Part shown: one piece after another, positions 2,827 to 31,284 of the stretch | Layout: every line of letters starts with the position of its first letter | Position numbering within the stretch: position 1 is the first letter of the stretch | Source: Candidatus Micrarchaeota archaeon | GTDB taxonomy: Archaea; Micrarchaeota; Micrarchaeia; Anstonellales; Bilamarchaeaceae | DNA length: 64,000 nt | NCBI GenBank assembly: GCA_014727925.1 | Contig: WJMN01000047.1 | Span: forward strand, 41,833-105,832 | Direction: 5' to 3' | The notes under the pieces: model-generated | The model's database searches: none | The model's input: the letters and a program-made list of their open reading frames with translations, nothing else | Told to the model about the DNA's origin: nothing | Made by a program: the position numbers and the translations under genes

Positions 2827-2848
2827 GTTAGTCGCCAGAAGTATCCCC

Positions 2849-5037: not shown

Positions 5038-5038
5038 G

Positions 5039-6301: not shown

Positions 6302-6311
6302 GGTTCCAAAA

Positions 6312-7433: not shown

Positions 7434-7442
7434 GGTGGAACA

Positions 7443-11102: not shown

Positions 11103-11135
11103 TTTAAAAGTATTTCTCTAGCCTAATCCCATCGT

Positions 11136-11594
11136 TTGGTGATTTTTATGCCCCCCAGAAAAATCCATAAATCTGCCCCGCTATCTAACCGCAGCCCTAC
11201 TATAATGAAGGCAGGCGGGATTTCCGGCCTACAGCACCTTCCACGCTGGGAAAAGTACCTTAAGCTGGGGGATGCTGCAGAAGAGCTGGGCCTGGGATTG
11301 GCTCACCTTGAGTGGAGAATCCGGGCATATTTTACTGCGCTGGAGCAGGGGAATTACCCTGCTGCACAGAAGATTGGACTGATTCATTTCACTGATAAAG
11401 AGGTGCGCATTGCCGAAAGCCTCCAGGTGCTTGGGGAGAATGCCCGCTCAGGCAGGCTGAACTCAGAACTCCAGTGCCTTGCTGAGAATGCCCTTGTGAC
11501 CGGAGTGCCGCGGGAGCTGGTTGCATGGGAGCTTGCAAAGCACCGTGCCCCAGATATGACTTTTCTTGAATGGAAACACCATATGCAACCTTAG
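11136..11594 (+). CDS. Hypothetical protein
   Basis: 152-aa ORF between the RNA ligase partner and the RNA ligase. No recognisable motif. The start may be the internal Met (MKAGG..., about 11205). Confidence 0.35.
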   Translation: MVIFMPPRKIHKSAPLSNRSPTIMKAGGISGLQHLPRWEKYLKLGDAAEELGLGLAHLEWRIRAYFTALEQGNYPAAQKIGLIHFTDKEVRIAESLQVLGENARSGRLNSELQCLAENALVTGVPRELVAWELAKHRAPDMTFLEWKHHMQP

Positions 11595-11599
11595 CCTTT

Positions 11600-12667
11600 C
11601 TAATCAGCCTGAGCATATCCTCCTATTGCCCTTCTCAGCCTCCTGCTTCCCTTTTTGTAGATTTTCCTGAATTTTATTCGTGTTCCCCCCTCCTCTTTCT
11701 TTTTTGAGTCCACTTCTATCCGGACCTCATCCGACATATGCTCCAGGACCTTCCTCCAGGTCCTGTTTTTTTTCACGAGAACCTCAAAGTCCTCACTTAC
11801 TTCCCCTCTGTTTTTTATTGCAGTGTAAAGATTTTTGTGCAGGGCCCTCCCCAGCTTTCCATCATATTTATCCTTGTCCAGCCCAAGTTCAGAAATGGAT
11901 ATTGCGCTCCTAAAGACACGCTGCTTCATGAACCCTGCCGGCATATCAAATATCATGTGCGAATTTTCTGCAAGGTCCTCTATCTCGGAGGAGGGGACCA
12001 CATATTTTATTATTTTTCTCGGCTTATCCTGCTTTAGCACAATCCCCTCCCCCCCGCTTTTTTCAACCCGAATCGCCGCTTTTTTTAGTTTCCCCGAATC
12101 CGGGCCCCCCATCCTCTCTACCAGGGGCGCGGCTCCCATTCTGTATTCTCTGCAGAGCTTTCTTTTTTCCCCGGTAGGGAGGAAATTGAGCTTTCCGTCG
12201 CTTATGTCAAACACATAATACTTAACATCATAATCCTTTGCGGGAGGGGTGTAGGGAGTGCACCCAACCATCTCAATATGGAGCACCTTTTCCGGGTGGA
12301 TTTTGAAGAATTCCCCTACTTCCTCCCTCTCCGAAATCTTCTCCATTGCAAAATAGTCCAGGAATCCTCCCCGTGAAATGCAGACAACTTTCCCGTGTTC
12401 ATAAGCAACCCTCAGGTTGAACCCGTCAATCTTTTCCTCTGCCCACGTTTCCTTTTTCCCAAGGTTTCTTTCCGCCCCTTCTGCAAGCGAAAAAACCCTC
12501 CTTATTTTTGGGTAACCGTACACAACCCGTTTTCCGATTATCACCGTCCCCCTGGGGATACTCCCTATCCTGTCCGAGAAGCGGTAGATTCCGTCTCTTT
12601 CCTCTACTTTTCCATTTCTGATTGCATCCCTGACCTTTTTCCTCAGCCCCTTATTCAGTTTCTTCAT
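11600..12667 (-). CDS. ATP-dependent RNA ligase, Pab1020/Rnl3 family
   Basis: Nucleotidyltransferase motif I EEKIDGFNLRVA (KxDG lysine). Upstream RGTVIIG...GYPKIRRVF aligns with the Pab1020 N-terminal domain. The ORF track extends to 12760 with a Lys/Arg-rich N-terminus that would overlap the antiporter gene by 110 nt, so the start at Met-32 (12667) was chosen. Confidence 0.85.
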   Translation of the reverse strand: MKKLNKGLRKKVRDAIRNGKVEERDGIYRFSDRIGSIPRGTVIIGKRVVYGYPKIRRVFSLAEGAERNLGKKETWAEEKIDGFNLRVAYEHGKVVCISRGGFLDYFAMEKISEREEVGEFFKIHPEKVLHIEMVGCTPYTPPAKDYDVKYYVFDISDGKLNFLPTGEKRKLCREYRMGAAPLVERMGGPDSGKLKKAAIRVEKSGGEGIVLKQDKPRKIIKYVVPSSEIEDLAENSHMIFDMPAGFMKQRVFRSAISISELGLDKDKYDGKLGRALHKNLYTAIKNRGEVSEDFEVLVKKNRTWRKVLEHMSDEVRIEVDSKKKEEGGTRIKFRKIYKKGSRRLRRAIGGYAQAD

Positions 12668-14006
12668 CTTCCTCAACCACTGTTTTCTGGATTTCAACCT
12701 TTTTCTTCTTTTTGGGGTTTTTTGCGGTCTGCCCATCCCCTTTCTCCCCTGCTTCAGCATCTCCCTTTTTTGCAGGTTTTCCGTTGCCGAATATTACTGT
12801 GCCAAGAGTTGTGGCCAGTATGCTTGTAATTATTACCACGAATGCAATCTGGGGAAAAGAGGAGAACATTTTATACAGTATGTTGAATTCCCCTGCCTCC
12901 AGCAGGCTGGATTTTTCCAGGAGCATTGCTGCAGGGTAAGTGGCCATGATTGCGGTTGCCAGCCCCCTCGGCATCAGCACAGTAAGCTGGGGCCGGAATT
13001 CTAGCAGGTCGCTTTTCCAGGTTGAAACCCAGACTGCTGCAGCCCGCACTGCAAGCAGGAGCAGGGTCACCCCAATTCCTACAAGCACCAGCCCCATATC
13101 TGTGATATTTACAATGGTTCCCAGGAATACAAAGAAGAATGTCCGCACAAGGAAGGAGATCTCATTCTGGAATTTGCTTACCCCCGGCTCTTCGGCGACC
13201 CCCTCAAACCTGAGCATCTTTCCGATTTCCCCCATGTTTCCAAGCATGAAACCGAAAACCAGCGCGGCAATTGCCCCGCTCCCTCCGGTAATTTCTGTGA
13301 TTATGTAGAGCACAAGCATTATTGCAAGTGTGAGCATGTAGAAAAAATTCAGCTTCCTGAGCTTGGGGCTCAGCCCTATCCATGCCATTCCAAATATTAC
13401 CCCGAGCACTGCACCTATTGAGAAGCTGGAAACCACGCTTTGCGTAGTGCCCTGGATGCTTGCATGTCCTGAGATGAACGCGCCGGTCAGAGAAAGGACC
13501 AGTACCACTGCAACAACATCAGTTATCGAGGATTCTATGGTTATTGTCTGCCTGGCCTTCTCGCTTATCTTCATTCCCCTGGCTATGGGTATTACTATTG
13601 CGGAGCCGGTTCCTGCCACCACTGAACCAAGGATTATCCCTGAGAAAATGCTGTTTCCCATAATCGCCCAGGCAGCAGCAACCGCTCCTATTGCAAGGGC
13701 AAGCCCCAGCACCCCGAGGATTATTCCCCTCCCGCTCTCATGCACAAGCCGGTATATGTTCAGCTGTGTTCCACCATCAAAAAGCAGTATCAGCAGGGCA
13801 AGCGGGGCAAAGATGTACTCCAGCCCCACCATTGTATCAACATCAACTATCCCTGTTACCGGCCCCAGCAGGTACCCTGTTGCAAGCAGCAAAAGCACAG
13901 AGGGGATTCCATATCTCCTGAATATCAGCTCCCCCAGGAACCCCACCAGGATTATTCCGGCAAAAATTGCAAAAGCAACCAGTGTAGCAAACGCCATGCA
14001 TCTCAC
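12651..14006 (-). CDS. Na+/H+ (cation:proton) antiporter, CPA1/NhaP-like
   Basis: 451 aa, about 12 TM helices, N-terminal region typical of NhaP-type exchangers, acidic/lysine-rich cytoplasmic C-tail. Confidence 0.65.
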   Translation of the reverse strand: MRCMAFATLVAFAIFAGIILVGFLGELIFRRYGIPSVLLLLATGYLLGPVTGIVDVDTMVGLEYIFAPLALLILLFDGGTQLNIYRLVHESGRGIILGVLGLALAIGAVAAAWAIMGNSIFSGIILGSVVAGTGSAIVIPIARGMKISEKARQTITIESSITDVVAVVLVLSLTGAFISGHASIQGTTQSVVSSFSIGAVLGVIFGMAWIGLSPKLRKLNFFYMLTLAIMLVLYIITEITGGSGAIAALVFGFMLGNMGEIGKMLRFEGVAEEPGVSKFQNEISFLVRTFFFVFLGTIVNITDMGLVLVGIGVTLLLLAVRAAAVWVSTWKSDLLEFRPQLTVLMPRGLATAIMATYPAAMLLEKSSLLEAGEFNILYKMFSSFPQIAFVVIITSILATTLGTVIFGNGKPAKKGDAEAGEKGDGQTAKNPKKKKKVEIQKTVVEEDEETE

Positions 14007-14546
14007 CTACCAGGGGACTTTCTTAAGCCCTGCCCTGTTTGCCATCAGGTTTGTGCCCACATGAAGCAGGTAGGATATAATCAGTATGAATGCGATATTT
14101 GGAATCGTGTATATGCCTTTTGCAAATGGGTATGCGAAGACCAGTGCACCCATTACGAAGTCCATCTGGTCTAGCACCCTTGAGTGCATTCCCGGTCTGA
14201 CACCCATCCTCCTTTTTATGAAGCTGCCTCCCGCATCCCCCACCAGGGCTCCCACTGCAAGCATTGAGCCGGAGAGGAAGAGCACCTCGCGGTTTCCAAA
14301 AAGCAGGCCGGGCCACCACAGGGAGATGAGCCCCGATGCAATCACGCCCGCTGCGATTCCCCCTAAAAATCCCTGAACTGTTTTGGTCTTCCCAAACAAG
14401 CCCATTCCGTCTCCAAGCGTAATCCCGCAGTCAAGGCGGCCCCCCCCTCCAACCAGTACAGGTGCGGCATTCGCAATGTAACAGGGAAGCATGAATGCAA
14501 GGAGCTCCAGAAAAATCATTTTATTCTTCATCACATTCCCAATCAA
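14007..14546 (-). CDS. carS: CDP-archaeol synthase (CDP-2,3-bis-O-geranylgeranyl-sn-glycerol synthase)
   Basis: 179 aa. Motifs LPCYIANAAPVLVGGG, GDAGGSFIKRR and C-terminal LKKVPW match the CarS family. Confidence 0.8.
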   Translation of the reverse strand: MIGNVMKNKMIFLELLAFMLPCYIANAAPVLVGGGGRLDCGITLGDGMGLFGKTKTVQGFLGGIAAGVIASGLISLWWPGLLFGNREVLFLSGSMLAVGALVGDAGGSFIKRRMGVRPGMHSRVLDQMDFVMGALVFAYPFAKGIYTIPNIAFILIISYLLHVGTNLMANRAGLKKVPW

Positions 14547-14616
14547 TCTTTATAAAATGAACTCCGTTTTTGCATATCAGTTAAGTATATAAACATTATT
14601 TAACACAATATTTACT

Positions 14617-15687
14617 ATGAATTCCCACCAAAACCCTCCTCACACCCCAAAGCAGCAGGTTGAGGATGCACTGGAAGGTCTTTGTTCTCCCTCTTCTGCA
14701 AACAGAATTACTGCTGCGCAGGAGCTCCAGGAGCTTGCCGCCAGCATGGATCCTGCCCAGAGGCCCCCGGTAATGGCGGCGCTGGCCCAAATGCTTGAAA
14801 GCGCCTCTGAATATACTGAAGTTGTTTTTGGCCTCCATTGCCTGTCTGTTGTGGCCTCAGGGCAAATGCCCGATTATTCAGAAGAAGAGATTTACAGCAA
14901 GGCGACCGCCGCAGAAAAAGTTGTTACAGTCTGCGGCCACATACTCCGGGTTCTTGACAACTCAAAGGAAACCCAACTTATCAGCCTTGGGGCAAAATCA
15001 CTTTCACGCATTTTTAAAACATCAGGAAAAGAAGAAAGAAATTCCTTCCTTTTTAGGGTACTCTCAGGCAGCAAGCTGGAAAAGATGGTTGCCCTGACTT
15101 CAATACATTCCATGGATTACAGGGACGATGCAGTTTCCACCAAGGTCGCGTTCTGCACCCAGGACTGGGACCATGAGGTCTGCACCAGGGCAGAAGAGGT
15201 TTTCCGCAAGATTTCACAGCATACTGAGGATAAGGGCAGATTGATCAAGCATCCCCTCAGGGAACTGGTGCTTGAAGAAAATGAGGAAAAGCTGCCCAGG
15301 CACATTAAGAAGTACTTCAAAAGAAATGGCAAAGACTCCAACGCGGCAGAACTCCTTAAGGCATTTGCAATAACCGGATTTGTAAGGGGCCTTGAAAACG
15401 GCACAACGATTGCAAAAGAGCTTGCGCGCATGGGCCACATTTCAGATTCAGATATTGACAGGCATGGCAAAAACGCCAAAAAAGGCGGGAGCAATCACCC
15501 TTCCCGGCCCAATCCTGATAAGCAGCTGGACCGCCTGCGCTCCCTTGCTTCATCAAAGGCCACATTTTCCGTTCGCCGGAGCCTTCCCCGCAGGAGCAGC
15601 CTTTCTCCTCCCCGCGGCAGGGGGCCAAAACCCCAGAAGAAGATAGAGTTCACTTCCTGGACACTTGCAGGAAGAACGGCTAATTAG
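14617..15687 (+). CDS. Hypothetical protein (possible HEAT/ARM-like repeats, Arg/Ser-rich C-tail)
   Basis: 356 aa, alpha-helical repeat character, basic RS-rich C-terminus. No catalytic motif. Confidence 0.4.
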   Translation: MNSHQNPPHTPKQQVEDALEGLCSPSSANRITAAQELQELAASMDPAQRPPVMAALAQMLESASEYTEVVFGLHCLSVVASGQMPDYSEEEIYSKATAAEKVVTVCGHILRVLDNSKETQLISLGAKSLSRIFKTSGKEERNSFLFRVLSGSKLEKMVALTSIHSMDYRDDAVSTKVAFCTQDWDHEVCTRAEEVFRKISQHTEDKGRLIKHPLRELVLEENEEKLPRHIKKYFKRNGKDSNAAELLKAFAITGFVRGLENGTTIAKELARMGHISDSDIDRHGKNAKKGGSNHPSRPNPDKQLDRLRSLASSKATFSVRRSLPRRSSLSPPRGRGPKPQKKIEFTSWTLAGRTAN

Positions 15688-17123: not shown

Positions 17124-17789
17124 ATGGGAACCAGAAAAGCATTTGTATTTTCCCTTGATTCATTTGTTGCATTTGTGCTTACAGTTGCTGCTCTGTATTC
17201 CCTCCTGTTTTTCGCAACGGTTCCTGCTGCTTATTATTCTTCGCTGACACAGGCAAATTACCTTGCAAAGGATACTCTGCTTGCGCTTGCAACAACCACT
17301 GCAGGTGAAGGGGCCGCCCACTGCAGCGAAGGGCAAACATATCTCGACTGTGTAATTGAAGATAAAAAAGCAGCGAGGATATATATAGGCTCAAAGGGCC
17401 AGGAAGGAGGATACGATGAGAGCGCCCTTGTGCCTGCCCAGTTTGGTTATAAGATTGAGACCCTTGATTTTTCGGAGGGAGACGGGGAAATAAACTTTTC
17501 TGATGCAGACTGGAGCGAAGTTTATAATACGGCAGATGACCCGCAGTCTGCAAACAAAAAAGAATACCACAAGCTCAAGGCAGCTGCCCACGCGCTTTAT
17601 TTTGGCTACAGCCAAGCCCCGGAGGGGGGAGAGGAATCCCCGCTCCACTATGTTAGCTGTGGAGGAGAATACACAATTTGCTCCTGGCCCGAGCCATTCA
17701 TTTATTATGGCAGCTATGACCATGAAGGGAACACTGACATCGTTGGAGATGCATATTCGCGGGTTGTGAGATTCACAGTATATACTTGA
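17124..17789 (+). CDS. Pilin-like protein A with class III (type IV prepilin-like) signal peptide
   Basis: Start at the internal ATG gives MGTRKA|FVFSLDSFVAFVLTVAALYSLLFF: short basic n-region, K at -2 and A at -1, then a hydrophobic helix. AT-rich TATA-like sequence immediately upstream. Confidence 0.55.
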   Translation: MGTRKAFVFSLDSFVAFVLTVAALYSLLFFATVPAAYYSSLTQANYLAKDTLLALATTTAGEGAAHCSEGQTYLDCVIEDKKAARIYIGSKGQEGGYDESALVPAQFGYKIETLDFSEGDGEINFSDADWSEVYNTADDPQSANKKEYHKLKAAAHALYFGYSQAPEGGEESPLHYVSCGGEYTICSWPEPFIYYGSYDHEGNTDIVGDAYSRVVRFTVYT

Positions 17790-17797
17790 GGTTTTCC

Positions 17798-19552
17798 ATG
17801 AACAGAAAAGGGTTTTTCTTCATAATCGTGGCGTTCGTCCTTCTTTCCTACATCCTTACATCTACCTATTTCTGGGTGCGGGCAATAGAGATGGAAGAAT
17901 CCAGGTATTCCGAAGCATTCCGCACAAGCTCCATGGAGATGGCGCTTTCCCAGGTAAATGAGGAAAGCGTAGGAGAATATGTGGACATTTCGGCCAGGTA
18001 TGCATTTTACCGCCTAAACCACCATTCTATTGAAAACCCGGTAAGTGTTCCGGGTGGTGTTGATATTGCAAATGAGGATTCCCTGGATGGCTCCGAGCTT
18101 GAGAACGTCCGTCTCGCGATGCGCGAGCTTGTGCTCTCCGGAACAGCACCAGAGGATTATTTTGAAGGGGAACCGCTAGAATATAGCGAAAATGAAAAAC
18201 TGGTCTATTCTCTGGATGGGTGGAAAAATCAGCTGAATGCATCGCTTGCCGCAGCCGGCTTTGAGCTGGTTGAGCTTTCAATAGATGAGGGTTCATTTGA
18301 GTTCAACCAGGTTAACTTCACCCAGTTTGAACTCGTTTTTGAAATGAACATGACCATTGTGGACAGCCAGGCAGGCTCTTCAACTTCCCTCCACCGCACT
18401 TATGATGTGAACCGCACGGTGGATGCAACAGGCATGGTGGATCCCTACATTGCCCGCGAATCCAAAAATCTGGACCTTGAATGGGAAGGAGAGAGCGTGC
18501 TGGTTGGGAAACCGGTATTTATTGCGCCCTACTGGGAAGATGGCTATGAAGCACTCTGCTCAGGAGGGGAAAACGGCCCCTGCTATTACGAGGATGATGG
18601 CTCAGAAGGCCAGGGCTGGTTTTATGGGCCAGTTGTTATGGCTGAGGATGCCTCCACTGTTCCTGAAAATGCAACCGACAATTATATTCTTGCAGGAAAT
18701 TATTCTGCTATAAAAAGCACTCCGGACTGGGATAAGTTCGGCGCATATATACTCACGAGCCCTCCCACCGAAGAGAATTCCGATTGCCCGGGCGAGAATG
18801 ACCAGGATGATACATTCAGCCCTGTTTATTATGATGGGGACTGTGATGCAGAGCTTGATACCGGATCAAACGATTACATCCAGAAGCCCTTCATGGTCTA
18901 TGAAGGGTTTGATATTGGTGATTATGGGGGAGTGGACCTCCAGAGCGGGGACGAGAATGCCCACAAGCTCCTATTTGTTGCAGGGGCAAACCCCTGGGAG
19001 GTAGAAACAGACCCGGAGCTAAAGTTTGAGGGTGTTTCAGTTTACAATATTGAAAATCTTAGGGATTTTGTAATGTGCGGATACTACATGCCGCGCAACA
19101 ACAGCCCCTCCTTTCTCCACCGCATGTTTGACCTGCAGGGAATGTTTAATGACGAGCTCCCTGCCTACGATGGCTGGCCCGAGAGCCCCTGGGGAATTGA
19201 GACCACTGCAGCAGGAAGGTGGGCAGGGGGAAACCTTGTGGCAGATTCCTGGGATGCCTACAGCAGGGTTGATGTTGAGTTCTTTTCAGAGGTGGAGAAT
19301 ACTCCCCAGAACCCGGTGCAGATGATTAAGGGGATGCCCGGGAACAAGAATATTTATATGTGCAACATGGAGTTTGGCTACGACCCGAACCTGGAGCATG
19401 TGGGCCATTTCAGGCTGAGTGACTGGGCCCAGGAAGACAGGGAAGAATACGATGATATTTACTGGATAGAAACTGATGACAGCCCGGATGTACCGGAGAA
19501 CGACAACACAGGTTGTGATAATGATGAGCAGGCAAACTGCGAGCTCGACTAA
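17798..19552 (+). CDS. Large pilin-like/adhesin-like protein B with class III signal peptide
   Basis: MNRKG|FFFIIVAFVLLSYIL N-terminus. 585-aa acidic extracellular domain with N-x-S/T sequons. The TTG at 17786 is an alternative start. Confidence 0.55.
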   Translation: MNRKGFFFIIVAFVLLSYILTSTYFWVRAIEMEESRYSEAFRTSSMEMALSQVNEESVGEYVDISARYAFYRLNHHSIENPVSVPGGVDIANEDSLDGSELENVRLAMRELVLSGTAPEDYFEGEPLEYSENEKLVYSLDGWKNQLNASLAAAGFELVELSIDEGSFEFNQVNFTQFELVFEMNMTIVDSQAGSSTSLHRTYDVNRTVDATGMVDPYIARESKNLDLEWEGESVLVGKPVFIAPYWEDGYEALCSGGENGPCYYEDDGSEGQGWFYGPVVMAEDASTVPENATDNYILAGNYSAIKSTPDWDKFGAYILTSPPTEENSDCPGENDQDDTFSPVYYDGDCDAELDTGSNDYIQKPFMVYEGFDIGDYGGVDLQSGDENAHKLLFVAGANPWEVETDPELKFEGVSVYNIENLRDFVMCGYYMPRNNSPSFLHRMFDLQGMFNDELPAYDGWPESPWGIETTAAGRWAGGNLVADSWDAYSRVDVEFFSEVENTPQNPVQMIKGMPGNKNIYMCNMEFGYDPNLEHVGHFRLSDWAQEDREEYDDIYWIETDDSPDVPENDNTGCDNDEQANCELD

Positions 19553-19988
19553 GAAAGGGCAGGCGGCCACTGAAACAATGGTCACCCTTGGAATGATCCT
19601 TGTTTTCGTGATACCCATACTGCTCCTGCTGCTCGTTGGCGCACAGGCCAGGTTTGAGTCTCTCTCCCATATTCAGGGTGGTTCAGTTATCAGGATAGTT
19701 TCTGATTCCATAAATGAGGTATATATAGAAGGCCCGGGCGCTTCAAAAACAGTTGTGGTTAATTTCCCAAGCAACGCCCGCTATCTCAACGTAACTGAGG
19801 ATGAGGTGGTGATGGGGCTGGATACCCGGAGCGGCCCAACAGATATAGTTTCCCCGTTTTTTGGTGAGCTCAACCAGAGCTCCAGGGGCCTGGTTGCACT
19901 TCCTTCAGGGGATGCACCTTCCGGGCTTTATCCAATAAAGTTTTATGCAGACAGCAGTGGAAATGTGGTGGTTGAGCATGGCGGGTAG
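19521..19988 (+). CDS. Pilin-like protein C with class III signal peptide
   Basis: MMSRQTASSTKKG|QAATETMVTLGMILVFVIPILLLL: KG followed by Q at +1 and Glu at +5, the hallmark of archaeal and type IV prepilins. The start overlaps the end of gene B. Confidence 0.6.
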   Translation: MMSRQTASSTKKGQAATETMVTLGMILVFVIPILLLLLVGAQARFESLSHIQGGSVIRIVSDSINEVYIEGPGASKTVVVNFPSNARYLNVTEDEVVMGLDTRSGPTDIVSPFFGELNQSSRGLVALPSGDAPSGLYPIKFYADSSGNVVVEHGG

Positions 19989-20523
19989 CAGAAAAGGCCA
20001 GATTGCAATTGAGTTCCTGATGTATTCAGGGCTTTTCCTGATAATTGCAATCGGCGCATATGTCCTTACTTCTTTTACAGAAAGAGGGGAGGTAAGCCTC
20101 AGGGAATCACAGCTGCTTGATGCATTCGGCTACAAGTTCGCTTCTGCGCCCACAATTGCCTACAAAGGAGGCGAGGGATTTACCTATGATATCTCTTTTG
20201 CAAAAAAGCTTGACAACCGCCCCTACAATGTTACCTATGCCTGCACAGGAGGCGACTCCAGGAGCTGCTATGTGCAGATTGCCTGGAGGGGCACTTACCA
20301 GGAATTCACCTACCCCTACGTGATTGCACCTGCCTTGTACAAGAAAGGGGAAGGTGCAGGGGATTCAGCTTGCATTGAGGATATAAGCTCAAGCAGCTCT
20401 GTTGACCTTGCTCTCAGGGTGGATTCTGAGTATTCAGATGGGCACCTTATATTCCGCAACACGGGAATCAAGCCAGGAGACGAATATCCCACAGTTGAAC
20501 TATATTGCGAGGTGGATGAGTAA
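19978..20523 (+). CDS. Pilin-like protein D with class III signal peptide
   Basis: MAGSRKG|QIAIEFLMYSGLFLIIAIGAYVL: RKGQ with Glu at +5 (same pattern as Methanococcus EppA-type pilins). Overlaps gene C by 11 nt. Confidence 0.65.
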   Translation: MAGSRKGQIAIEFLMYSGLFLIIAIGAYVLTSFTERGEVSLRESQLLDAFGYKFASAPTIAYKGGEGFTYDISFAKKLDNRPYNVTYACTGGDSRSCYVQIAWRGTYQEFTYPYVIAPALYKKGEGAGDSACIEDISSSSSVDLALRVDSEYSDGHLIFRNTGIKPGDEYPTVELYCEVDE

Positions 20524-20981
20524 TGAAGGGCCAGTATTTCAGTTTTGATGCAATAATCGGCGCATCCATATTCATCCTCACCCTTGTTGCAATCTTTTCT
20601 TACTGGTATGGGGTGAGCAATTCAATTGAGCAGCAGCAGTCAGCCCTTGCAACAGAGGCAATCCGCATAGCGGATATCCTTTATTCACCAACCGAAGTCC
20701 CTTATGGGGTAACTGTAAACTGGAGCAACAAGCACCTATATGTTCCCAAAGTGGAAGCTCTCTGTGATGAAGAGGCCCCTCCCTCAGATGTGCTGGGCTC
20801 TGAGTATGCGGTTTCAATTGATTTCAACACCCGTGGGGACAATATTTGTACCTGGGGAGAACAGTCCATAAATTCAAATGAGATTTACAGGATGCGCAGG
20901 GCAGGTTCTTACTTAGATGAAGATGGCACAACCAGACTGGGCTATGTGGATATCTTTGTTTATAACCCCTATTCAAACTAA
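20523..20981 (+). CDS. Pilin-like protein E with class III signal peptide
   Basis: MKG|QYFSFDAIIGASIFILTLVAIF: KGQ with Asp at +6. Overlaps gene D by taATGa. Confidence 0.6.
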   Translation: MKGQYFSFDAIIGASIFILTLVAIFSYWYGVSNSIEQQQSALATEAIRIADILYSPTEVPYGVTVNWSNKHLYVPKVEALCDEEAPPSDVLGSEYAVSIDFNTRGDNICTWGEQSINSNEIYRMRRAGSYLDEDGTTRLGYVDIFVYNPYSN

Positions 20982-25112: not shown

Positions 25113-25127
25113 AAATGTTTATAATGC
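25113..25127 (+). promoter_or_regulatory. TATA box (TTTATAAT) for the large surface-protein gene, leaderless arrangement
   Basis: TTTATAAT at 25118-25125, 24 nt upstream of the ATG at 25149. Confidence 0.5.
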
Positions 25128-25148
25128 TTATTTTAATTATTACTCCTA

Positions 25149-28100
25149 ATGTCTTCCCATTCAAAAAAAGGTTCCTTCAGCTTCAGGCGTTTTGATGAGC
25201 TGACGGTCCTGCTTGCAGTTTTCTTTTTCATCTTTGGATGCATAATCATCCCGGAGCCACCTATACCTGTGGAGCTCAACAAGTTCTCTGACCTCTCTAC
25301 AAGCAAGGAGCTGCAATTTGAGTCCCCCCCGGAGTCCCAGAGTTTCCACCTCAATATCTCCAGATACGCCACAGTGGGAAATTCTTCCATTCCTGCAGAG
25401 GGCAATCCAGGCGTAGTGCAGAATTTCAGCATGCGCATCTGCCCGATTGAGCATATGGGCTCCAATGTATCTAACCTGACTATGCACTGGCCCGGGGGAG
25501 AATCCTACATGTTTTACCCCGGAACCCTGGATTCCTGCGAGGAGGTTTCAATAAACGCATCAGGATTCAATAGCTATCTTTCTGTGCACCAGGCGCCCAC
25601 CATAACAGGGATGCTTTCAAAAATATCTTCGGGTGAGAATGTTTCAATGGAATGGGGAATAAGCATGAAGAACCCCAAGATGAAGGATGTGGATGACCCG
25701 GTAACATATCAATTTATGATAATAGAGCCATCTATTCCCGAGAATTTGATTGAGCAGCTGATTGCAGCTACCGGGACCGCACTTCCACCAGGGTTTGACC
25801 TGCTCACCGATGCCCGCCTTTCAGGAGTGTCCTATACATGCTATGGCTGGGATCAGGTTAGGGAGACCACTTCCCCTTCAGCAGCATACCCTATACAGGT
25901 TTCAGTTCCGGGAATGAACCTGAGTGCGCTTATACCCGACCTTACAATTCCCAATGGGACGGTTGTGATGAATGCTTCTGTTTTTGAGATGGACTGCCCT
26001 GCATACGGCACCCCGGGAAAATACCGCTCAGAAGTCCGCAGGCTCCAGTTGAATCTGAACAATTATACAGGCCCTGTGCCCAGCGCTTCATTTTCAGATG
26101 ATTTTAACAGCCCTTCTCTGAACCCTGCATGGGTATTTGAATATGCGGGAACCCCTTCTGTCCTCGGATGGTATGTTGACAACAGCACACAGAGCACAGT
26201 TGAGCTTTATTCAGAAGGCAACGCTTCTGGCTCATCTGCATATTATTACCGCAACCACACCATTGATTCCAGCGGAGGTGCATTTGTGCTTGAAGCAAAT
26301 ATCTCCACTGCAGGAGAACCGCCAATAAATATGTCCATGCCACTCCCAGAGGGCGCAGGAATGGTTGCATTCACAACCAACCATTCTTACCCTGGCCCCA
26401 TGGCATCCGCAGGCACCCAGCTACGCAGCTTCATAGCCTTTGGAAATAATGCAACTCTCATCGGGTGCCCGGATGGGACCAGGGCATCCATTATCCCCAC
26501 TTCTTCAGGCTACCACACGTTCAGGATAAACATCACAAATGACACTGCAACATATGCTGTGGATGGTGCGCAGGTTTTCCAATGCACAAACCATACCTCC
26601 GCGGAACTCTACCCAATGTTTTCATCTGATTTCCTCACTGATGGGTTTATGGGCAATATTTCAGTTGACTGGATAAACATAACAGCTTACTCTGGCGGCC
26701 CTGGCACATGGTCTGAGGAATGGTCTGAATTTGACCATTTTGATTCCCCACTGGATACTGGCAAGTGGCTTATGCGCAATGTATCTGTGCCTAAACAGAT
26801 ACCATATTATTCCTACCAGCCGTCCCTGAGCAAAATTGACCTCTACTCATACAATACAGATGAAAACGATAACAGCACAGGCATATTAATGTACTATAAT
26901 GAGTCCTTTGCCCCGCCCACAAGCAACGAATCAGGAATTTATTTTACCACATCAGTTTATTTTAATGAATCAAACCCTGCTGCAGCCCCAGGATTCATGT
27001 TTATGAATGATACTGTGTCTCCTGCCGGATTCAGTGAACTGGAAGACAATTACCGGGGAGGGATAATCTACTCAAATGGCTATATTGTGCTGACCTGCCC
27101 CAACACCTCAAAAACTTATGCTGCCAACCTTAGCCAGCTCTCCTACATTATGGGCTGGGGAGAACCCACCGGATGGCACCAGCTGGGTTACTATTCCACG
27201 AATGATACTACTGCATTCTTTTATGATGATATGCCCATGCCCCTGAATTGTTCCCCACATAATGAAAGCGTTTATATTGCTATCACATCTGACCCCACAA
27301 CAGATCTCACAGAAGGCAATGGTTCAGTGCGCTGGTTTGAGGCATACAGTGTTGAATACGAAGAAAACTATTATGGGGAGAAGTGGTTTGATCTTGGTCT
27401 CCTCTCATATATGGGATACATAAACAGGAGCATGTATTCTGATGTTATTGTTTTTGATGCGGACTCAGAAGGCAATTATTATGACAGGGAATTTGAGTTT
27501 GAAGTCACCTCAGATACGCCCGGCCGCCTCCAGATGGATGCCCTCAATATAACATATGGTTCCTTGATTTCATATGGCCCGGGGGGCACAGCACCCACAA
27601 CCACACTGGACCCGGATTCGGATTTCTCCTGGTTTGCGATAAACTCTGAAATAGATAATTCCCACATGCGCCTAAATTCCTTTGCCTACAACTCTACCCT
27701 TACTGATTCTGAGCTTATAATGGCAAGGGCAGACTGCGTGAATATTACAGATTCCAGGCTCCTGTTCTCTGGTGCAGTTTACAATACAGAAGAGAAGCAC
27801 CTAGGTGAGCTGGGGGGGCTACTCGAAGACCTGAACATGACTTCCTGTGATGGAGTAGTAGAAAATTCCGAACTGGAATTTGTTTTCCTTATAGGCGGGA
27901 ATGCATTCAATTCTGAACTCAAGACGCTTCCCGCCATAATTGCAACTGATTTCTATGATGCAACGATGGACAACCTCACCCTTTACAGGGGCAGGATGGT
28001 GATAAACGGGACCCGTGCCCCGGACATGTTCCAGGATGAGCTTGACCTGGGAGATTTTATGGGAATCGGGCTTTCAACCTTTGAGGACAACACCACCCTT

Positions 28101-29369
28101 CCATTCTCCTGCGAGGAGCAGTCAACCATGGCAATAGATGGCGCAGCAGACCTCAGGCTTGCGGATGCCCCTGCCAAAACCGTGAACTGCCGCTTTGAAC
28201 TGCACAATTCCAATTTCACCGTGCAGAACCTTACTTTTGACAACGAGTTCGGGGGAATCCGGGTTTCCCTGGACAACAGTTCCCTCCATGTAAATGATAT
28301 GCCCGAGCCAATAAACCTGACAACATATGGGCAGCTTACAGATGTTGTAATATGGAACCTGGATACCTCACTGCTTTCTGGTCCCCTGGTAGTTTCAGAT
28401 GAAGGGATATACATTGAAACAGGGATGGCTTCTGTTAACAAGACTGCACCAGGAGCAAATATGAGCGAGATTTCAGACCTTTTCAACATTTCCCTGATAT
28501 ATAATAATGTCGGGGAGTGGGACGGCAGCATAACATATTATGGCAATTTCACCCGCAACAGGACACATGCAATGCAGAGTGGAATTGAGTGCCCCGCAGA
28601 CCGCTGCCAGAATGTAGTGTTTGACCGCTCTGCCCACACAATCCGGGTAGATATTTCCAATTTTTCTACATATGTGGTCAATTACACTGAATATGAAGAT
28701 GAGGATGAAGAAGAGGATGACGATGGCCCAGATGATGTAGATTATCAGCTTGAGGTCGAAGGCGCATGCGCAGGCTCTGCAGTAAATTTCACTGCAAGCC
28801 GCTCCGGGCTTGGCACAAGCGGAATCACAATCCGGGTTTATGGCCCAGACAACCAATCCCTGTTTTATGGCCATGATGAAACAGGAAGCCATGGCCGCGC
28901 TTCATTCACCCCCACATTTCCCGGAACATATTACTACTCAGCAGGCGCAGCAGGTTATACGGAAAAAACAGGCAGCATTGAGATACTAAACTGCACCACC
29001 CCCTCCGGGGAAGCCCCTCCTGCCGAGCCAATTCCTGAAGAGGAGCCTCCAGCAGGCACTCCTTCAAAGGAAGAATGCTATTTAGATGCTGATTGCCCGG
29101 CAGGCCATTGGTGCATAGAAAATGAGTGCGTGCTTGCAATTGAGCCTACTGAGGAAGGCCCGGGCCCCGAAATAACCCCGCCTTCCCAGGCCCAGGAGGT
29201 TCCGTCTGTGGCAGAGCCCAAAGAAGAGGCTGGGGAAACCCCTCCATGTTGTCTCGTGGGCATCTGCCTTGAAGTGCTGGGAGTATGCTGGTACTATTGG
29301 GTTGCAGGGCTGGCGATTCTTGGCCTTTTTGTCATTATTTACATCAATTATCCGGGCAAAAAGAGATAG
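25149..29369 (+). CDS. Large N-glycosylated cell-surface protein (S-layer/adhesin candidate) with C-terminal TM anchor
   Basis: 1406 aa. N-terminal signal/anchor (LTVLLAVFFFIFGCIIIP), dozens of N-x-S/T sequons, acidic run EDEDEEEDDDGPDD, Pro/Glu/Thr-rich stalk, then C-terminal hydrophobic helix CWYYWVAGLAILGLFVIIYINYPGKKR (PGF-CTERM-like topology without the PGF tripeptide). Confidence 0.7.
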   Translation: MSSHSKKGSFSFRRFDELTVLLAVFFFIFGCIIIPEPPIPVELNKFSDLSTSKELQFESPPESQSFHLNISRYATVGNSSIPAEGNPGVVQNFSMRICPIEHMGSNVSNLTMHWPGGESYMFYPGTLDSCEEVSINASGFNSYLSVHQAPTITGMLSKISSGENVSMEWGISMKNPKMKDVDDPVTYQFMIIEPSIPENLIEQLIAATGTALPPGFDLLTDARLSGVSYTCYGWDQVRETTSPSAAYPIQVSVPGMNLSALIPDLTIPNGTVVMNASVFEMDCPAYGTPGKYRSEVRRLQLNLNNYTGPVPSASFSDDFNSPSLNPAWVFEYAGTPSVLGWYVDNSTQSTVELYSEGNASGSSAYYYRNHTIDSSGGAFVLEANISTAGEPPINMSMPLPEGAGMVAFTTNHSYPGPMASAGTQLRSFIAFGNNATLIGCPDGTRASIIPTSSGYHTFRINITNDTATYAVDGAQVFQCTNHTSAELYPMFSSDFLTDGFMGNISVDWINITAYSGGPGTWSEEWSEFDHFDSPLDTGKWLMRNVSVPKQIPYYSYQPSLSKIDLYSYNTDENDNSTGILMYYNESFAPPTSNESGIYFTTSVYFNESNPAAAPGFMFMNDTVSPAGFSELEDNYRGGIIYSNGYIVLTCPNTSKTYAANLSQLSYIMGWGEPTGWHQLGYYSTNDTTAFFYDDMPMPLNCSPHNESVYIAITSDPTTDLTEGNGSVRWFEAYSVEYEENYYGEKWFDLGLLSYMGYINRSMYSDVIVFDADSEGNYYDREFEFEVTSDTPGRLQMDALNITYGSLISYGPGGTAPTTTLDPDSDFSWFAINSEIDNSHMRLNSFAYNSTLTDSELIMARADCVNITDSRLLFSGAVYNTEEKHLGELGGLLEDLNMTSCDGVVENSELEFVFLIGGNAFNSELKTLPAIIATDFYDATMDNLTLYRGRMVINGTRAPDMFQDELDLGDFMGIGLSTFEDNTTLPFSCEEQSTMAIDGAADLRLADAPAKTVNCRFELHNSNFTVQNLTFDNEFGGIRVSLDNSSLHVNDMPEPINLTTYGQLTDVVIWNLDTSLLSGPLVVSDEGIYIETGMASVNKTAPGANMSEISDLFNISLIYNNVGEWDGSITYYGNFTRNRTHAMQSGIECPADRCQNVVFDRSAHTIRVDISNFSTYVVNYTEYEDEDEEEDDDGPDDVDYQLEVEGACAGSAVNFTASRSGLGTSGITIRVYGPDNQSLFYGHDETGSHGRASFTPTFPGTYYYSAGAAGYTEKTGSIEILNCTTPSGEAPPAEPIPEEEPPAGTPSKEECYLDADCPAGHWCIENECVLAIEPTEEGPGPEITPPSQAQEVPSVAEPKEEAGETPPCCLVGICLEVLGVCWYYWVAGLAILGLFVIIYINYPGKKR

Positions 29370-29395
29370 CCCAGAAACCATCCGGAGGTCTCCAG

Positions 29396-30379
29396 ATGAA
29401 TGTGCAGGAATATTCTAATATCAAGCGGAGAAAGATAGACGATTGCCTGCTTTCAAAAATCCCCAGTGAACCTGAACACATCTATTCCATGCTCCGGGAA
29501 TTTATTTTCCGGGGGGGCAAGCGCATCCGCCCAACGCTTACCCTTGCATGCGCAGAAGCCGCGGGAGGCTCGGAATCTGATGCAATGGACTATGCAGTTG
29601 CAGTTGAGCTTTTCCATAATTTTACCCTGATTCATGATGATGTGGAGGACAATTCTTCCCTGCGCAGGGGCAAGCCAACCATTAATGCAGAATATGGAAT
29701 CCCTACTGCAGTAAATGCAGGGGATGCTCTCTACCGGGCAATGTGGTCAGCTGTGCTCTCAAGCAGCGACCCTCCGGATAAGCGACTGGAAGCACTCAGG
29801 ATAATGGTTGACGGGTTTTCTTCTGTTGTTGAGGCACAGGGCACCGAGCTGTTCTGGCAGCGCAACCGCAATTTTTCTGTTTCCGAAGAGGAATATCTCC
29901 GGATGGCATCAGGAAAGACAGGGGAACTTATCGGCCTTGCATGCAAGATGGGTGCATTTTCCGCCGATGCTCCCGAGGAGCTCCAGCTTTCTCTGCAGGA
30001 ATTCGGAAGGAAAATCGGTCTTGCCTTCCAGATAAAGGACGATGTTCTCAACCTGGTTTCCAATGCGGATAAATACAATAAAGAGCCAGGAGAAGACATA
30101 AGGGAAGGAAAGCCAACACTTGTGGCTCTCAAGCTTCTTTTTTCCCTTCCGGAAAACGAGAAGAATGAAGTTCTGCAAATTCTGGGAAAGCATGGAAATT
30201 CCAAAGAAGAGGTTTCCCGCGTCCTCTTTCTTGCAAAAGAGCACGGCTCAATTGATTACGCAAACACAGCTTGCGAGCGCCTCCTTTCCGAGGCAAAATC
30301 CTGCCTTTCTGTTCTCTCCCCCGAAAAGCGCTCCCTTTTTTCCGGCATGGCTGATTATGCAATAAGGAGGGAGGAGTAG
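29396..30379 (+). CDS. Geranylgeranyl diphosphate synthase (short-chain trans-prenyltransferase)
   Basis: First DDxxD (LIHDDVEDN) with the RRG downstream, second DDxxD (FQIKDDVLN). The start was moved to the ATG at 29396 after the stop of the upstream gene. Confidence 0.85.
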   Translation: MNVQEYSNIKRRKIDDCLLSKIPSEPEHIYSMLREFIFRGGKRIRPTLTLACAEAAGGSESDAMDYAVAVELFHNFTLIHDDVEDNSSLRRGKPTINAEYGIPTAVNAGDALYRAMWSAVLSSSDPPDKRLEALRIMVDGFSSVVEAQGTELFWQRNRNFSVSEEEYLRMASGKTGELIGLACKMGAFSADAPEELQLSLQEFGRKIGLAFQIKDDVLNLVSNADKYNKEPGEDIREGKPTLVALKLLFSLPENEKNEVLQILGKHGNSKEEVSRVLFLAKEHGSIDYANTACERLLSEAKSCLSVLSPEKRSLFSGMADYAIRREE

Positions 30380-31284
30380 TGCTGGAAAAGCTCAAGAAGG
30401 CAATCTCCATAAGCCGCCCTGTTTTCTGGCTTGGGCCCATGCTTGTTTACCTCGCAGGATTGTTTATGGCTGGGATTCCCCGCGGCCCCCTTGAAACGGT
30501 TGAAATGCTTCTCCTCACATTTCCCTTCGCATTCATAATTTACGGGCTAAACGACATATATGATAATGAGGTGGACAAAAGCAGCCCGCGCAAGGGAGGC
30601 ATGTGGGGCGCAAGACTGGAAAAGAAGGACATCCCATGGGTAAAACATCTCATAATTTTCTTCTCAATTGCAATAATCTTTACTTCCGCCCTCTCCTTCC
30701 AGCCCCTGCATTTCGCATTCTCTTTCCTTATGGTTGCTGTTCCCTACCTATATTCTGCGCCCCCTTTCCGCTTCAAGGCCCGCCCGTTTTGGGATTCTTT
30801 TCTCAGCGGCGGCTATGGAGTCGGCCCATTTATGTTCGCTTATACGCTTTCAGGGGAATTCTTCCCATACCCTGAGCTTTTTGTTGTTTCTGCAGGATTT
30901 TCCGCAATCCATGCAATTGCCACGATAATGGACTACAGGGAGGACAGGAACTCGGGCATAAACACCTTCGCAGTTGGATATGGCCCGGCTGCCCCCGCAC
31001 TTTTCGTACTCCTTGTTTGCATCGTGAATTTCATATATTCCTGGGGCTTTTCATACATTATTTCCGCAGGCATTGGCCTTGCAGGAATTCTGTCTGCATG
31101 GCTTGCATTCTGCCCCACCCCAAAAAATGCAAAAACAGTTTTCAAACTCCTCATTGCTTATGTATTTTTCTGGCTGTTTTACTTCTTCCTTAAGTATTTC
31201 GTGCTGGGCCCATGGTTTGCAGACTATTCAGAAATGGAGTTCCGCACAATTCTCCCCGAAGTTCTTGAGTATGTACGACAGTAG
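30379..31284 (+). CDS. UbiA-family prenyltransferase, probable digeranylgeranylglyceryl phosphate (DGGGP) synthase
   Basis: About 8 TM helices, NDIYDNEVD (NDxxDxxxD) motif, second Asp-rich motif DYREDRNSG. Translationally coupled to the GGPP synthase (overlapping stop/start). Confidence 0.6.
   Translation: MLEKLKKAISISRPVFWLGPMLVYLAGLFMAGIPRGPLETVEMLLLTFPFAFIIYGLNDIYDNEVDKSSPRKGGMWGARLEKKDIPWVKHLIIFFSIAIIFTSALSFQPLHFAFSFLMVAVPYLYSAPPFRFKARPFWDSFLSGGYGVGPFMFAYTLSGEFFPYPELFVVSAGFSAIHAIATIMDYREDRNSGINTFAVGYGPAAPALFVLLVCIVNFIYSWGFSYIISAGIGLAGILSAWLAFCPTPKNAKTVFKLLIAYVFFWLFYFFLKYFVLGPWFADYSEMEFRTILPEVLEYVRQ

Follow-up and report, generated by a model that had tools for sequence, protein, structure and literature searches.

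In the 64,000-nucleotide (nt) stretch of contig WJMN01000047.1 that was analyzed here (hereafter the window), one open reading frame (ORF) on the forward strand, starting with ATG and spanning 25149..29369 in the ORF listing of the window, encodes a large surface protein of 1406 amino acids (aa) of a Candidatus Micrarchaeota archaeon. We propose that this protein is probably a major envelope glycoprotein specific to the Micrarchaeota, which would form a coat that is S-layer-like in topology and would have the capacity to bind glycans. A true lattice-forming S-layer is a narrower version of this reading that we regard as rather doubtful, and neither is exclusive with adhesion to a host. The proposal is built on the ORF itself, selection for N-glycosylation sequons, two hydrophobic ends, conserved sequence motifs, a taxonomically restricted family, a conserved promoter and the linkage to a gene of the UbiA prenyltransferase family. 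The protein would be abundant, for which the conserved consensus promoter is the one indirect indication, and would function in the coat or in adhesion. The Micrarchaeota, like other DPANN archaea, are attached to host cells, and their surface proteins, almost all of which are unannotated, form the interface of this symbiosis.

Sequon load and topology

The large surface protein has a mass of 154 kDa, an isoelectric point of 4.16 and 25 Cys residues, and a Kyte-Doolittle scan identifies exactly two hydrophobic segments, at aa 14-42 and aa 1367-1403. The ORF and its composition are as described in the first-pass annotation of this DNA, whose start at 25113 merely takes in the promoter. The acidic cluster EDEDEEEDDDGPDD (aa 1183-1196), both Pro/Glu/Thr-rich stretches and the terminal ...NYPGKKR that had been reported there are all found in the translation. 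An exported, membrane-anchored protein with a stalk, a C-terminal transmembrane helix and a basic tail is supported by these predicted features.

The protein contains 57 N-x-S/T sequons, which corresponds to 40.5 per 1000 aa. The other 58 ORFs of the window mostly contain 0-7 sequons per 1000 aa (highest 11.9, background ~3 per 1000 aa), so that the enrichment over the window background is approximately tenfold. When the protein was shuffled within its own composition (n = 2000), 15.0 ± 3.4 sequons were obtained with a maximum of 27, placing the observed number at z = 12. The dozens of sequons noted in the first-pass annotation, and the comparison of their density with the background that it called for, are thus borne out. 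As many as 63% of the Asn residues are located in sequons, while the reversed motif [ST]-x-N occurs only 9 times. The sequons span aa 69 to aa 1281 and all lie between both hydrophobic segments; neither the signal peptide nor the stalk or the anchor contains any, and 11 sequon columns are invariant among the 10 close homologs. This density, this confinement and these invariant sites argue for strong, position-specific selection for N-glycosylation of the extracytoplasmic domain. Glycosylation itself, at up to 57 sites, would be AglB-dependent.

A lipobox-type N-terminus

The N-terminus had been described as a signal or anchor. The signal part of that description stands and can be specified as a lipobox-type signal peptide with an invariant Gly-Cys pair: in the 10-sequence alignment, the hydrophobic core ends in G30 and C31, neither of which varies. 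A permissive PROSITE PS51257-like pattern was used as lipobox test, and it is matched by 10/10 close homologs and 15/16 divergent members, or 25 of the 26 sequences. Some of the divergent members display fully canonical lipobox peptides, namely MRRQTAIAFLALLLLLGC/SS (LLLGC/SS), ...FLFILGC/PS and ...LLFLFGC/AS. By its sequence, the predicted N-terminus qualifies as that of an archaeal lipobox protein, and Cys31 would be lipidated upon removal of the signal peptide. The lipobox is followed by a Pro-rich linker in which P37, P38 and P40 are invariant.

All 25 Cys residues are conserved wherever their segment exists, namely 24 and the lipobox Cys. With Cys31 as the odd one beside 24 others, this fits a lipidated Cys31 and disulfide bonds among the remaining residues, and a DsbA-like gene is located near one homolog. 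Other proteins encoded in related Micrarchaeota loci carry canonical lipoprotein signal peptides, and the lipoprotein-lipidating enzyme AliA has been reported in DPANN archaea 'with some gaps' (PMC12462473). Two other types of signal were considered and rejected. A Tat signal was discarded because no Tat consensus follows the RR pair, which close homologs replace by RH, and a class III pilin-type signal because KKG is separated from the hydrophobic core by charged residues, in an arrangement that is not conserved.

A Cys/Trp motif and a transmembrane anchor at the C-terminus

The stalk, the single C-terminal helix, the KKR end and the lack of PGF at the C-terminus, all recorded in the first annotation, were recovered. 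Between stalk and helix lies a Cys/Trp juxtamembrane motif with the consensus C-C-[LF]-x-G-[IVL]-C-x3-[LF]-G-[IVL]-C-W-[YF]-[WY]-W, in which C1367, C1368, C1373, G1378, C1380, W1381 and W1384 are invariant. In 37/37 motif-bearing sequences, the motif is followed by 18-26 hydrophobic residues and then by a tail with 2-11 K/R residues. Mean pairwise identity is 61% in the motif and 72% in the post-lipobox linker, versus 28% in the transmembrane helix and 32% in the stalk. By this measure, constraint on the protein is strongest in the two putative membrane-proximal segments.

In the AlphaFold2 (AF2) model, a beta-hairpin (aa 1367-1380) runs into a helix (aa 1381-1400) with a predicted local distance difference test (pLDDT) score of 65-80. 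The number of Cys residues in the motif is always four or two and never odd, and the family members P0066 and P0068 possess the transmembrane helix and the tail without the motif. Both findings suggest that the motif is a disulfide-stapled structural element and that the anchor is permanent and not a signal removed by cleavage. The tripartite layout of sorting signals (motif, transmembrane helix and basic cluster) is present, a generic feature that is on its own insufficient to define an archaeosortase substrate. None of the CTERM sorting models of NCBIfam (PGF-, PEF-, VPXXXP-, PIP- and CGP-CTERM) matches the protein at E ≤ 1, nor its last 62 aa or the last 48 aa of a homolog at E ≤ 10. No PGF, PEF or CGP tripeptide occurs near the C-terminus, the sole PGF tripeptides being located at aa 214 and aa 614. 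The non-canonical archaeosortase-type signal that the first-pass annotation had envisaged is therefore disfavored, both by the lack of any model match at E ≤ 10 and by the motif-less members, which argue for a permanent anchor.

The C-terminal module is ordered as Ig-like domain, 4-6-Cys mini-modules, Pro/Glu stalk, Cys/Trp motif, transmembrane helix and K/R tail. In an exhaustive search, this module was also found on unrelated ectodomains, such as NosD/beta-helix repeats, beta-propellers and Big_13/PKD/CARDB arrays, and it is carried by ~23 of the top 150 representatives. It is a reusable predicted C-terminal anchor of Micrarchaeota surface proteins that is absent from domain databases.

Ectodomain architecture

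The ectodomain was modeled with AF2 in two overlapping halves based on 10-sequence alignments, resulting in a mean pLDDT of 50 (aa 1-700) and 63 (aa 551-1406). Confident stretches comprise aa 580-735, aa 995-1183 and aa 1200-1280. Since the pLDDT obtained from 10 sequences is low, fold matches are used at the level of the fold class only. With this limit, a Foldseek search of both halves against the PDB returned ConA-like lectin/glucanase folds with a probability of ~1.0 and a TM score of ~0.5 on domain-sized targets, at E = 1e-6 to 1e-3. The N-terminal half, with its mean pLDDT of 50, yielded 337 PDB matches at E ≤ 1e-3. The matches include Emp47p, legume lectins, laminin G domains, neurexin LNS tandems, galectins, PL7 and GH16 enzymes, as well as the Hc-N domain of BoNT, the SasG lectin domain and PKD domains. 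In BFVD the same fold class was matched, by phage tail-fiber and receptor-binding proteins, and no viral fusion-protein fold was found in that search. Candidate lectin-type and Ig-like domains, for which structure prediction had been advised, both emerged from the structure comparison.

The second of the two better-modeled jelly rolls (aa ~991-1183) resembles ConA-like lectins/glucanases, PL7, GH16 and galectin folds with a TM score of ~0.5. The Ig-like region gives a weak filamin match at the sequence level (E = 0.026) and matches many repeat proteins, and PF13620 (CarboxypepD_reg) or PKD domains occur in the proteins that share the C-terminal module. A ~240-aa insertion is present in 6/10 close homologs and absent from P0007-P0010. 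Traces of GH16 are weak, with a Pfam score of 14.2 versus a cut-off of 22 for aa 451-490 and sequence matches at E 0.03-0.4 for aa 438-490. The protein lacks E-x-D-x-x-E, the catalytic motif of GH16, and its identification as a GH16 enzyme was rejected for that reason. The domain assignments in Table 1 are thus predictions of moderate confidence. As modeled, the ectodomain looks like a stalk-borne stack of jelly rolls of the carbohydrate-binding type together with a solenoid-like, Asn/Ser-rich segment and an Ig-like domain, an architecture of adhesins or coat proteins and not of an enzyme.

Family and distribution

Whether queried with the single sequence or with a profile, word-indexed searches yielded an identical set of 10 clusters (34-59% identity). 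The family was widened only when 1.84 billion representatives were scanned exhaustively with a HMMER profile, which placed 21 proteins below 1e-30. Among these are full-length but divergent members (1191-2674 aa) as well as a shorter, paralogous form (810-878 aa). All named sources are Micrarchaeota, Micrarchaeia or Bilamarchaeaceae, and the family as retrieved by these sequence searches is restricted to the Micrarchaeota. The gene is single-copy in most of the loci seen. Between the window and locus L001, the large surface proteins share 59% identity and the products of the flanking genes 60-89%, which makes it the fastest-evolving gene at its locus in this comparison.

In the Micrarchaeota MAG locus L006, a paralogous fragment (10001-11527) with 24% identity to aa 763-1282 is located directly upstream of the UbiA gene and the gene for the large surface protein. 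A 6693-aa NosD/right-handed beta-helix repeat protein is encoded near the short paralog on a 485-kb Micrarchaeota contig (L019, 19979-22601 and beyond).

No Pfam or NCBIfam model reaches its threshold on the whole protein, its last 62 aa or its first 63 aa, and the sub-threshold noise consists of Dumpy DPY, DUF7107, GH16 and a phage tail tube family. When the single protein and a 10-sequence profile were compared with PDB sequences, filamin and GH16 were the only matches, and these were not significant. The S-layer models (TIGR01567, DUF1608/PF07752, S_layer_N/C) do not match at E ≤ 1 in Pfam or NCBIfam, nor do they match the divergent members P0054 and P0065. The S-layer-like topology that had been pointed out at first is consequently not reflected in homology to any S-layer family of Pfam or NCBIfam. 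Among the 40 ORFs of the window that were scanned against Pfam or NCBIfam, no archaeosortase/exosortase, AglB, AliA or S-layer gene was detected, and the unannotated ones could not be assigned to any family.

Promoter and transcription unit

The intergenic region upstream of the gene measures 148 nt and contains the TATA box listed in Table 1. Its position is kept across six loci: in the homologous loci the box lies 22-24 nt before the ATG and reads TTTATAA in L001, L002, L003 and L017, and CTTATAA in L004. It is kept even where the preceding UbiA gene ends just 33-53 nt upstream, which suggests that the gene owns a conserved promoter placed for a leaderless mRNA. A leaderless transcript from its own strong promoter is therefore a credible prediction, and the TATA box 24 nt upstream of the ATG that had been annotated gains weight from the conserved spacing in the six loci.

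Directly downstream lies a gene for a short-chain isoprenyl diphosphate synthase of the geranylgeranyl diphosphate (GGPP) type. The mechanically called ORF of this enzyme has its ATG at 29285, within the 3' end of the upstream gene and in another frame (29285-29395), but homology with L001 and a GGAGG motif indicate ATG 29396 as the real start. This start is located 26 nt past the stop codon of the large gene and is preceded by GGAGG. The UbiA gene starts with a GTG that overlaps the stop codon of the GGPP synthase gene and is likewise preceded by a GGAGG-like sequence. Given this short gap, the GGAGG motif and the overlap, a tri-cistronic transcript is likely, and the three genes are probably co-transcribed in the window.

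Table 1. Coordinates of the gene for the large surface protein, its predicted parts and the two downstream genes in the window
Feature	Residues	Position	Strand	Remarks
TATA box TTTATAA		25118..25124	+	Last base 24 nt upstream of ATG 25149
Large surface glycoprotein (putative), coding sequence	1-1406	25149..29369	+	Identical to NCBI hypothetical protein GF415_04455, Candidatus Micrarchaeota archaeon metagenome-assembled genome (MAG)
Lipobox-type signal peptide (predicted)	1-31	25149..25241	+	Positive n-region, h-region LTVLLAVFFFIF, then I-F-G-C31
Membrane-proximal linker IIIPEPPIPVEL.. (predicted)	32-45	25242..25283	+	Best-conserved segment by mean pairwise identity (72%)
N-terminal beta-rich domain (predicted)	46-320	25284..26108	+	Invariant Cys 98, 130, 231 and 283; 11 sequons; low pLDDT
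~240-aa insertion	321-560	26109..26828	+	Long-form homologs only; models as ConA-like/LamG/GH16-like jelly roll(s)
Beta-sandwich/jelly-roll domain (predicted)	~561-735	26829..27353	+	AF2 pLDDT 66-83
Asn/Ser-rich beta-solenoid-like region (predicted)	~736-990	27354..28118	+	3-residue strand runs; pLDDT 30-65; low to moderate confidence
Second well-modeled jelly-roll beta-sandwich (predicted)	~991-1183	28119..28697	+	pLDDT 81-88
Acidic linker DEDEEEDDDGPDDVD	1184-1198	28698..28742	+	
Ig-like domain (filamin-, PKD- or CarboxypepD_reg-like; predicted)	1199-1283	28743..28997	+	Bracketed by invariant C1207 and C1282; pLDDT 80-88
Pro/Glu/Thr stalk (predicted)	1284-1365	28998..29243	+	Contains the 4-Cys mini-module
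4-Cys mini-module ECYLDADCPAGHWCIENEC	1309-1327	29073-29129	+	Also in other anchor-carrying proteins
Cys/Trp juxtamembrane motif PCCLVGICLEVLGVCWYYW	1366-1384	29244..29300	+	Conserved
C-terminal transmembrane helix and basic tail GKKR (predicted)	1385-1402 and 1403-1406	29301..29366	+	
Short-chain (GGPP-type) isoprenyl diphosphate synthase		29396..30379	+	IdsA/GGPPS-like, below equivalog cut-offs
UbiA-family intramembrane prenyltransferase		30379..31284	+	PF01040 score 63.3 versus cut-off 34.2

Linkage to an uncharacterized UbiA subfamily

In every locus examined (~20), a UbiA gene adjoins the gene for the large surface protein on the same strand, in one of three gene orders. The large gene is followed by the GGPP synthase and UbiA genes in the window, L001, L020 and L022, and by UbiA alone in L004, L023, L032 and L034. 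UbiA precedes the large gene in L002, L003, L006, L007, L009, L017, L024-L027, L031, L035 and the P0058 locus. The genes flanking this pair vary between loci. The linkage also holds reciprocally. When the UbiA protein is at least 38% identical, the large gene is adjacent in 13/13 testable metagenomic loci (three more are too short to tell), versus 0/20 loci with the large gene nearby when UbiA relatives are at most 35% identical, these distant relatives being found in housekeeping contexts. The distribution of the UbiA subfamily is just as narrow as that of the large surface protein. A link of UbiA with the C-terminal motif in general was rejected, as P0147 carries the same motif on another ectodomain without a UbiA neighbor. 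The short paralog P0066 has no UbiA neighbor either, and the linkage is specific to orthologs of the large surface protein.

The Asp-rich motifs of the UbiA protein, N58-D59-x-x-D62-x-x-x-D66 and D185-x-x-x-D189, are invariant in 13 sequences. Against the equivalogs NF009521 and NF009522 of digeranylgeranylglyceryl phosphate (DGGGP) synthase (DGGGPS), there was no match or a weak one (at best 2e-9, for one ortholog, far below the cut-off). The best NCBIfam matches are PRK13595, PRK12875 and PRK13105, with 127 bits versus a cut-off of 248. In a profile search against the PDB, AfUbiA ranked first (5e-18), followed by chlorophyll synthase, ApUbiA and UBIAD1, and no chain named DGGGP synthase appeared at E ≤ 10. 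A bona fide PRK13595 member adjoins a CrtI-type oxidase on an actinobacterial contig. Literature on PRK13595, PRK12875, PRK13105 and the substrate of AfUbiA yielded nothing usable, and the DPANN reviews consulted contain no lipid-pathway detail for this lineage. Judged by these searches, the UbiA protein is not a recognizable DGGGP synthase and represents an uncharacterized subfamily. A CDP-archaeol synthase, CarS, is encoded in the window (14007-14546, reverse strand; PF01864, E = 6e-39). Its presence suggests that part of the archaeal ether-lipid pathway is kept and that the cell needs a DGGGP-forming enzyme, so that the UbiA protein could be a divergent DGGGP synthase. Of the flanking ether-lipid genes claimed in the first-pass annotation, the GGPP synthase and UbiA genes downstream are indeed present, but the UbiA protein is not recognizable as the DGGGP synthase of ether-lipid synthesis, and the linkage is tighter than the word flanking conveys.

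At the locus of the divergent member P0058 (genes at 6313-14810), other membrane enzymes that modify lipids or glycans surround the pair: a PAP2 phosphatase and an LPG_synthase_TM protein are encoded upstream of the pair of UbiA and large surface protein genes. An Acyl_transf_3/HGSNAT-like acyltransferase is encoded downstream of it, with a DsbA-like thioredoxin ~4 kb further. UbiA relatives of ~274 aa with 32-35% identity are located in L038 (1968-2792), L040 (2423-3247) and L012 (6001-6825), next to genes for ribosomal protein S27e, Map and prolyl-tRNA synthetase and with no large surface protein gene nearby.

Proposed mode of action and alternative explanations

If the protein is an envelope glycoprotein as proposed, a leaderless mRNA would be transcribed from its own conserved TATA box, with the GGPP synthase and UbiA genes co-transcribed in the window. 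The product would be exported by Sec through the N-terminal lipobox signal peptide, and removal of this peptide would leave a lipidated N-terminus at Cys31. The C-terminal transmembrane helix would stay in the membrane with the KKR tail inside, and a short Cys/Trp hairpin of high hydrophobicity, probably stapled by disulfides, would lie at the outer membrane surface. Between both anchors, an acidic and Cys-rich ectodomain of ~1330 aa would be exposed, with disulfide bonds formed among its Cys residues and up to 57 N-glycans. According to the models, it would consist of an N-terminal beta domain, two to four jelly rolls of the ConA-like/LamG type, a solenoid-like region rich in Asn/Ser and an Ig-like domain. 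This body would stand on a stalk of ~80 aa, while a short lipidated linker would hold the N-terminal domain near the membrane. The lectin-type domains could bind glycans, either the cell's own or those of a host archaeon.

Several points weigh against this proposal. No known lattice-forming domain was found in the protein, its high Cys content is atypical of S-layer proteins, and the domain assignments are based on AF2 models from 10 sequences. Under the strict lipobox definition, [L/V/I]-3 [A/S/T/V/I]-2 [G/A/S]-1 C+1, the Phe at position -2 is non-canonical, with canonical residues at this position in divergent members, and three Ile residues directly follow Cys31, so that an uncleaved N-terminal transmembrane anchor is possible. 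An MSTP-like S-layer protein may be encoded elsewhere in the genome, which would make the large surface protein secondary.

There are several alternative explanations. The protein could primarily serve host attachment, with lectin-like jelly rolls that bind the glycans of a wall-less host archaeon and a stalk that projects them, which is compatible with a coat. Such a role would agree with the several ConA-like, LamG or L-type-lectin-like domains (the folds that also dominate the phage receptor-binding proteins of BFVD), the host dependence of cultured Micrarchaeota, the fast evolution of the gene relative to its locus and the gain or loss of a lectin-like module between clades. The gene is single in most loci, however, unlike expanded hypervariable adhesin families. 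It is also conserved clade-wide with an invariant framework of Cys residues and sequons, the model quality is too low to check sugar-binding residues, and there is no known host for the lineage; we therefore consider attachment as the primary role somewhat unlikely. The same fold matches could indicate an enzyme that is anchored at the surface and scavenges glycans by degrading polysaccharides, in the manner of PL7 alginate lyases or GH16 glucanases, given that PL7 lyases and GH16 glucanases are among the top Foldseek matches in the PDB and that GH16 is weakly matched in sequence at aa 438-490. These structural matches reflect the common jelly-roll fold, and lectins and LamG domains score equally. 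The sequence matches are not significant (E-values of 0.03-0.4) and the GH16-like insertion is missing in 4/10 close homologs, making this a very improbable explanation.

Alternatively, the protein could be a lattice-forming S-layer protein whose C-terminal transmembrane segment is a non-canonical signal that an archaeosortase-like enzyme exchanges for a covalent lipid anchor. Its C-terminus has the generic tripartite shape of sorting signals, the motif is modular and occurs on unrelated ectodomains as sorting signals do, lipid-synthesis genes are linked to the gene, and the stalk, acidic isoelectric point, sequon load and strong promoter resemble those of haloarchaeal S-layer glycoproteins. 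We nevertheless deem this explanation unlikely. Even at E ≤ 10 there is no match to any -CTERM model, the 40 ORFs of the window that were scanned include no archaeosortase, P0066 and P0068 keep helix and tail without the motif, and the even number of Cys residues in the motif suggests a structural disulfide hairpin. In addition, the Cys-rich composition is atypical and the protein does not resemble the MSTP/TIGR01567-type S-layer proteins of Micrarchaeota. The UbiA linkage raises a different option, in which the large surface protein and a GGPP-fed UbiA enzyme form a dedicated modification module that makes the attached lipid or directly prenylates one of the conserved membrane-proximal Cys/Trp segments. 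Same-strand adjacency in ~20 loci in three orders and otherwise shuffled neighborhoods, the reciprocal linkage (13/13 versus 0/20 for more distant UbiA proteins) and the equally narrow distribution of the UbiA subfamily speak for such a module. So do the intact Asp-rich catalytic motifs of a UbiA protein that is no recognizable DGGGP synthase and the position of the most conserved segments of the large surface protein, which are membrane-proximal. Yet we know of no UbiA-family enzyme that modifies a protein. The active sites of UbiA enzymes open to the cytoplasm, whereas the two Cys segments are expected at the outer leaflet. A UbiA neighbor is lacking for other proteins that bear this C-terminal motif, CarS in the window implies the need for a DGGGP synthase, of which this UbiA protein may be a divergent form, and the large gene keeps its own promoter, so that co-transcription is not general. 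On this evidence, such a module is improbable. An extended form, in which the large surface protein and its GGPP-supplied UbiA partner constitute a new archaeal protein-lipid anchoring module and the Cys/Trp-transmembrane-K/R element is a Micrarchaeota-wide sorting/anchoring signal with its own machinery, likewise appears unlikely to us. A coat-forming envelope glycoprotein remains the explanation that we favor.

Other observations in the window and in related loci

Further unannotated proteins are encoded in the window. Six consecutive ORFs of 322-420 aa on the forward strand (2825-9526) each display an N-terminal hydrophobic segment and have no Pfam or NCBIfam match. They are mutually paralogous at 22-30% identity (E down to 1e-16), thus forming a tandem array of an unannotated membrane/secreted family. 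At 17786-20981 (forward strand), an ORF of 588 aa with 7 sequons and no family match is followed by two small ORFs with lookalikes of class III (type IV pilin-like) signals, RKGQ/IAIEFL and MKGQ/YFSFDAII, the second of which weakly matches DUF7287. In L001, the neighborhood of the large gene is likewise preceded by a series of unannotated genes that share one strand and are similar in size. An ORF of 800 aa at 54375-56777 (forward strand) has no Pfam or NCBIfam match. In L017 (1-2413), the micrarchaeote aRF1 gene (eRF1 domains) holds an intein with a LAGLIDADG endonuclease domain. In L016 (17389-22207), a Candidatus Micrarchaeia contig, cas4-cas2-cas1 adjoin a gene for a 610-aa Cas12f1-like/TnpB (OrfB_IS605) protein.

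Significance and comparison with known systems

The locus defines a large, lineage-wide envelope glycoprotein family without a database model. Its probable double anchor, a lipobox and a transmembrane helix, is unusual among archaeal surface proteins, and the Cys/Trp motif could serve as a sequence tag for cataloguing the Micrarchaeota surface proteome. The pair of surface protein and UbiA enzyme, among the tightest seen, offers a testable handle on the coupling of lipid chemistry and envelope in host-dependent archaea. If the large surface protein is the true main coat protein, S-layer-type coats of Micrarchaeota are not all of the MSTP type.

Among known systems, the S-layer glycoproteins of haloarchaea (Haloferax volcanii and Halobacterium; PGF-CTERM/ArtA substrates) share a large, acidic, N-glycosylated ectodomain, a strong promoter and a Thr/Pro-rich stalk that leads to a C-terminal hydrophobic segment and a basic tail, in addition to a probable role as membrane-tethered coat. 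The large surface protein differs from them by its lack of sequence or domain homology and of PGF-CTERM, and it adds a lipobox, 25 conserved Cys residues and a Cys/Trp hairpin. The archaeosortase gene artA is reportedly linked with the lipid-synthesis genes pssA and pssD. By analogy, a gene for a membrane-lipid enzyme would be coupled to the anchoring of a surface glycoprotein in both cases. There, the partners are archaetidylserine synthase, a decarboxylase and a transpeptidase, whereas here a UbiA enzyme stands beside a substrate-like protein and no transpeptidase was seen. The archaeal lipobox lipoproteins of Haloferax volcanii, which depend on AliA/AliB, have an n-region, an h-region, [LVI]-x-[GAS]-C and a Pro-rich linker in common with the predicted N-terminus. 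They are anchored by lipid alone, whereas the large surface protein would also keep its C-terminal transmembrane helix and has a Phe at position -2. With ConA-like/LamG adhesins such as Emp47p, laminin LG, neurexin LNS, SasG and phage tail fibers, it shares predicted tandem jelly rolls and an Ig-like domain on a stalk, although this likeness is at the level of the fold only (8-15% identity, TM score of ~0.5, models of moderate confidence).

Within the phylum, SLP_Mh of Candidatus Micrarchaeum harzensis has TIGR01567-type S-layer domains, almost no sulfur-containing residues and a mass of ~101 kDa (bioRxiv 10.1101/2021.04.28.441871), and the S-layer proteins of DPANN archaea, Micrarchaeota included, are reported to be orthologous MSTP-like beta-sandwich proteins (bioRxiv 10.1101/2024.05.28.596244). 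The large surface protein and these SLP_Mh/MSTP-like proteins (TIGR01567/DUF1608) are glycosylated or putatively glycosylated surface proteins of the same phylum with an ambiguous N-terminal signal or transmembrane segment. SLP_Mh has no described C-terminal transmembrane helix, whereas the large surface protein is Cys-rich and matches no S-layer model, which indicates that it is not a member of the MSTP/TIGR01567 family. What is new compared to these known kinds is the combination of a lipobox with a C-terminal transmembrane helix, the modular Cys/Trp anchor and the strict pairing with an uncharacterized UbiA subfamily.

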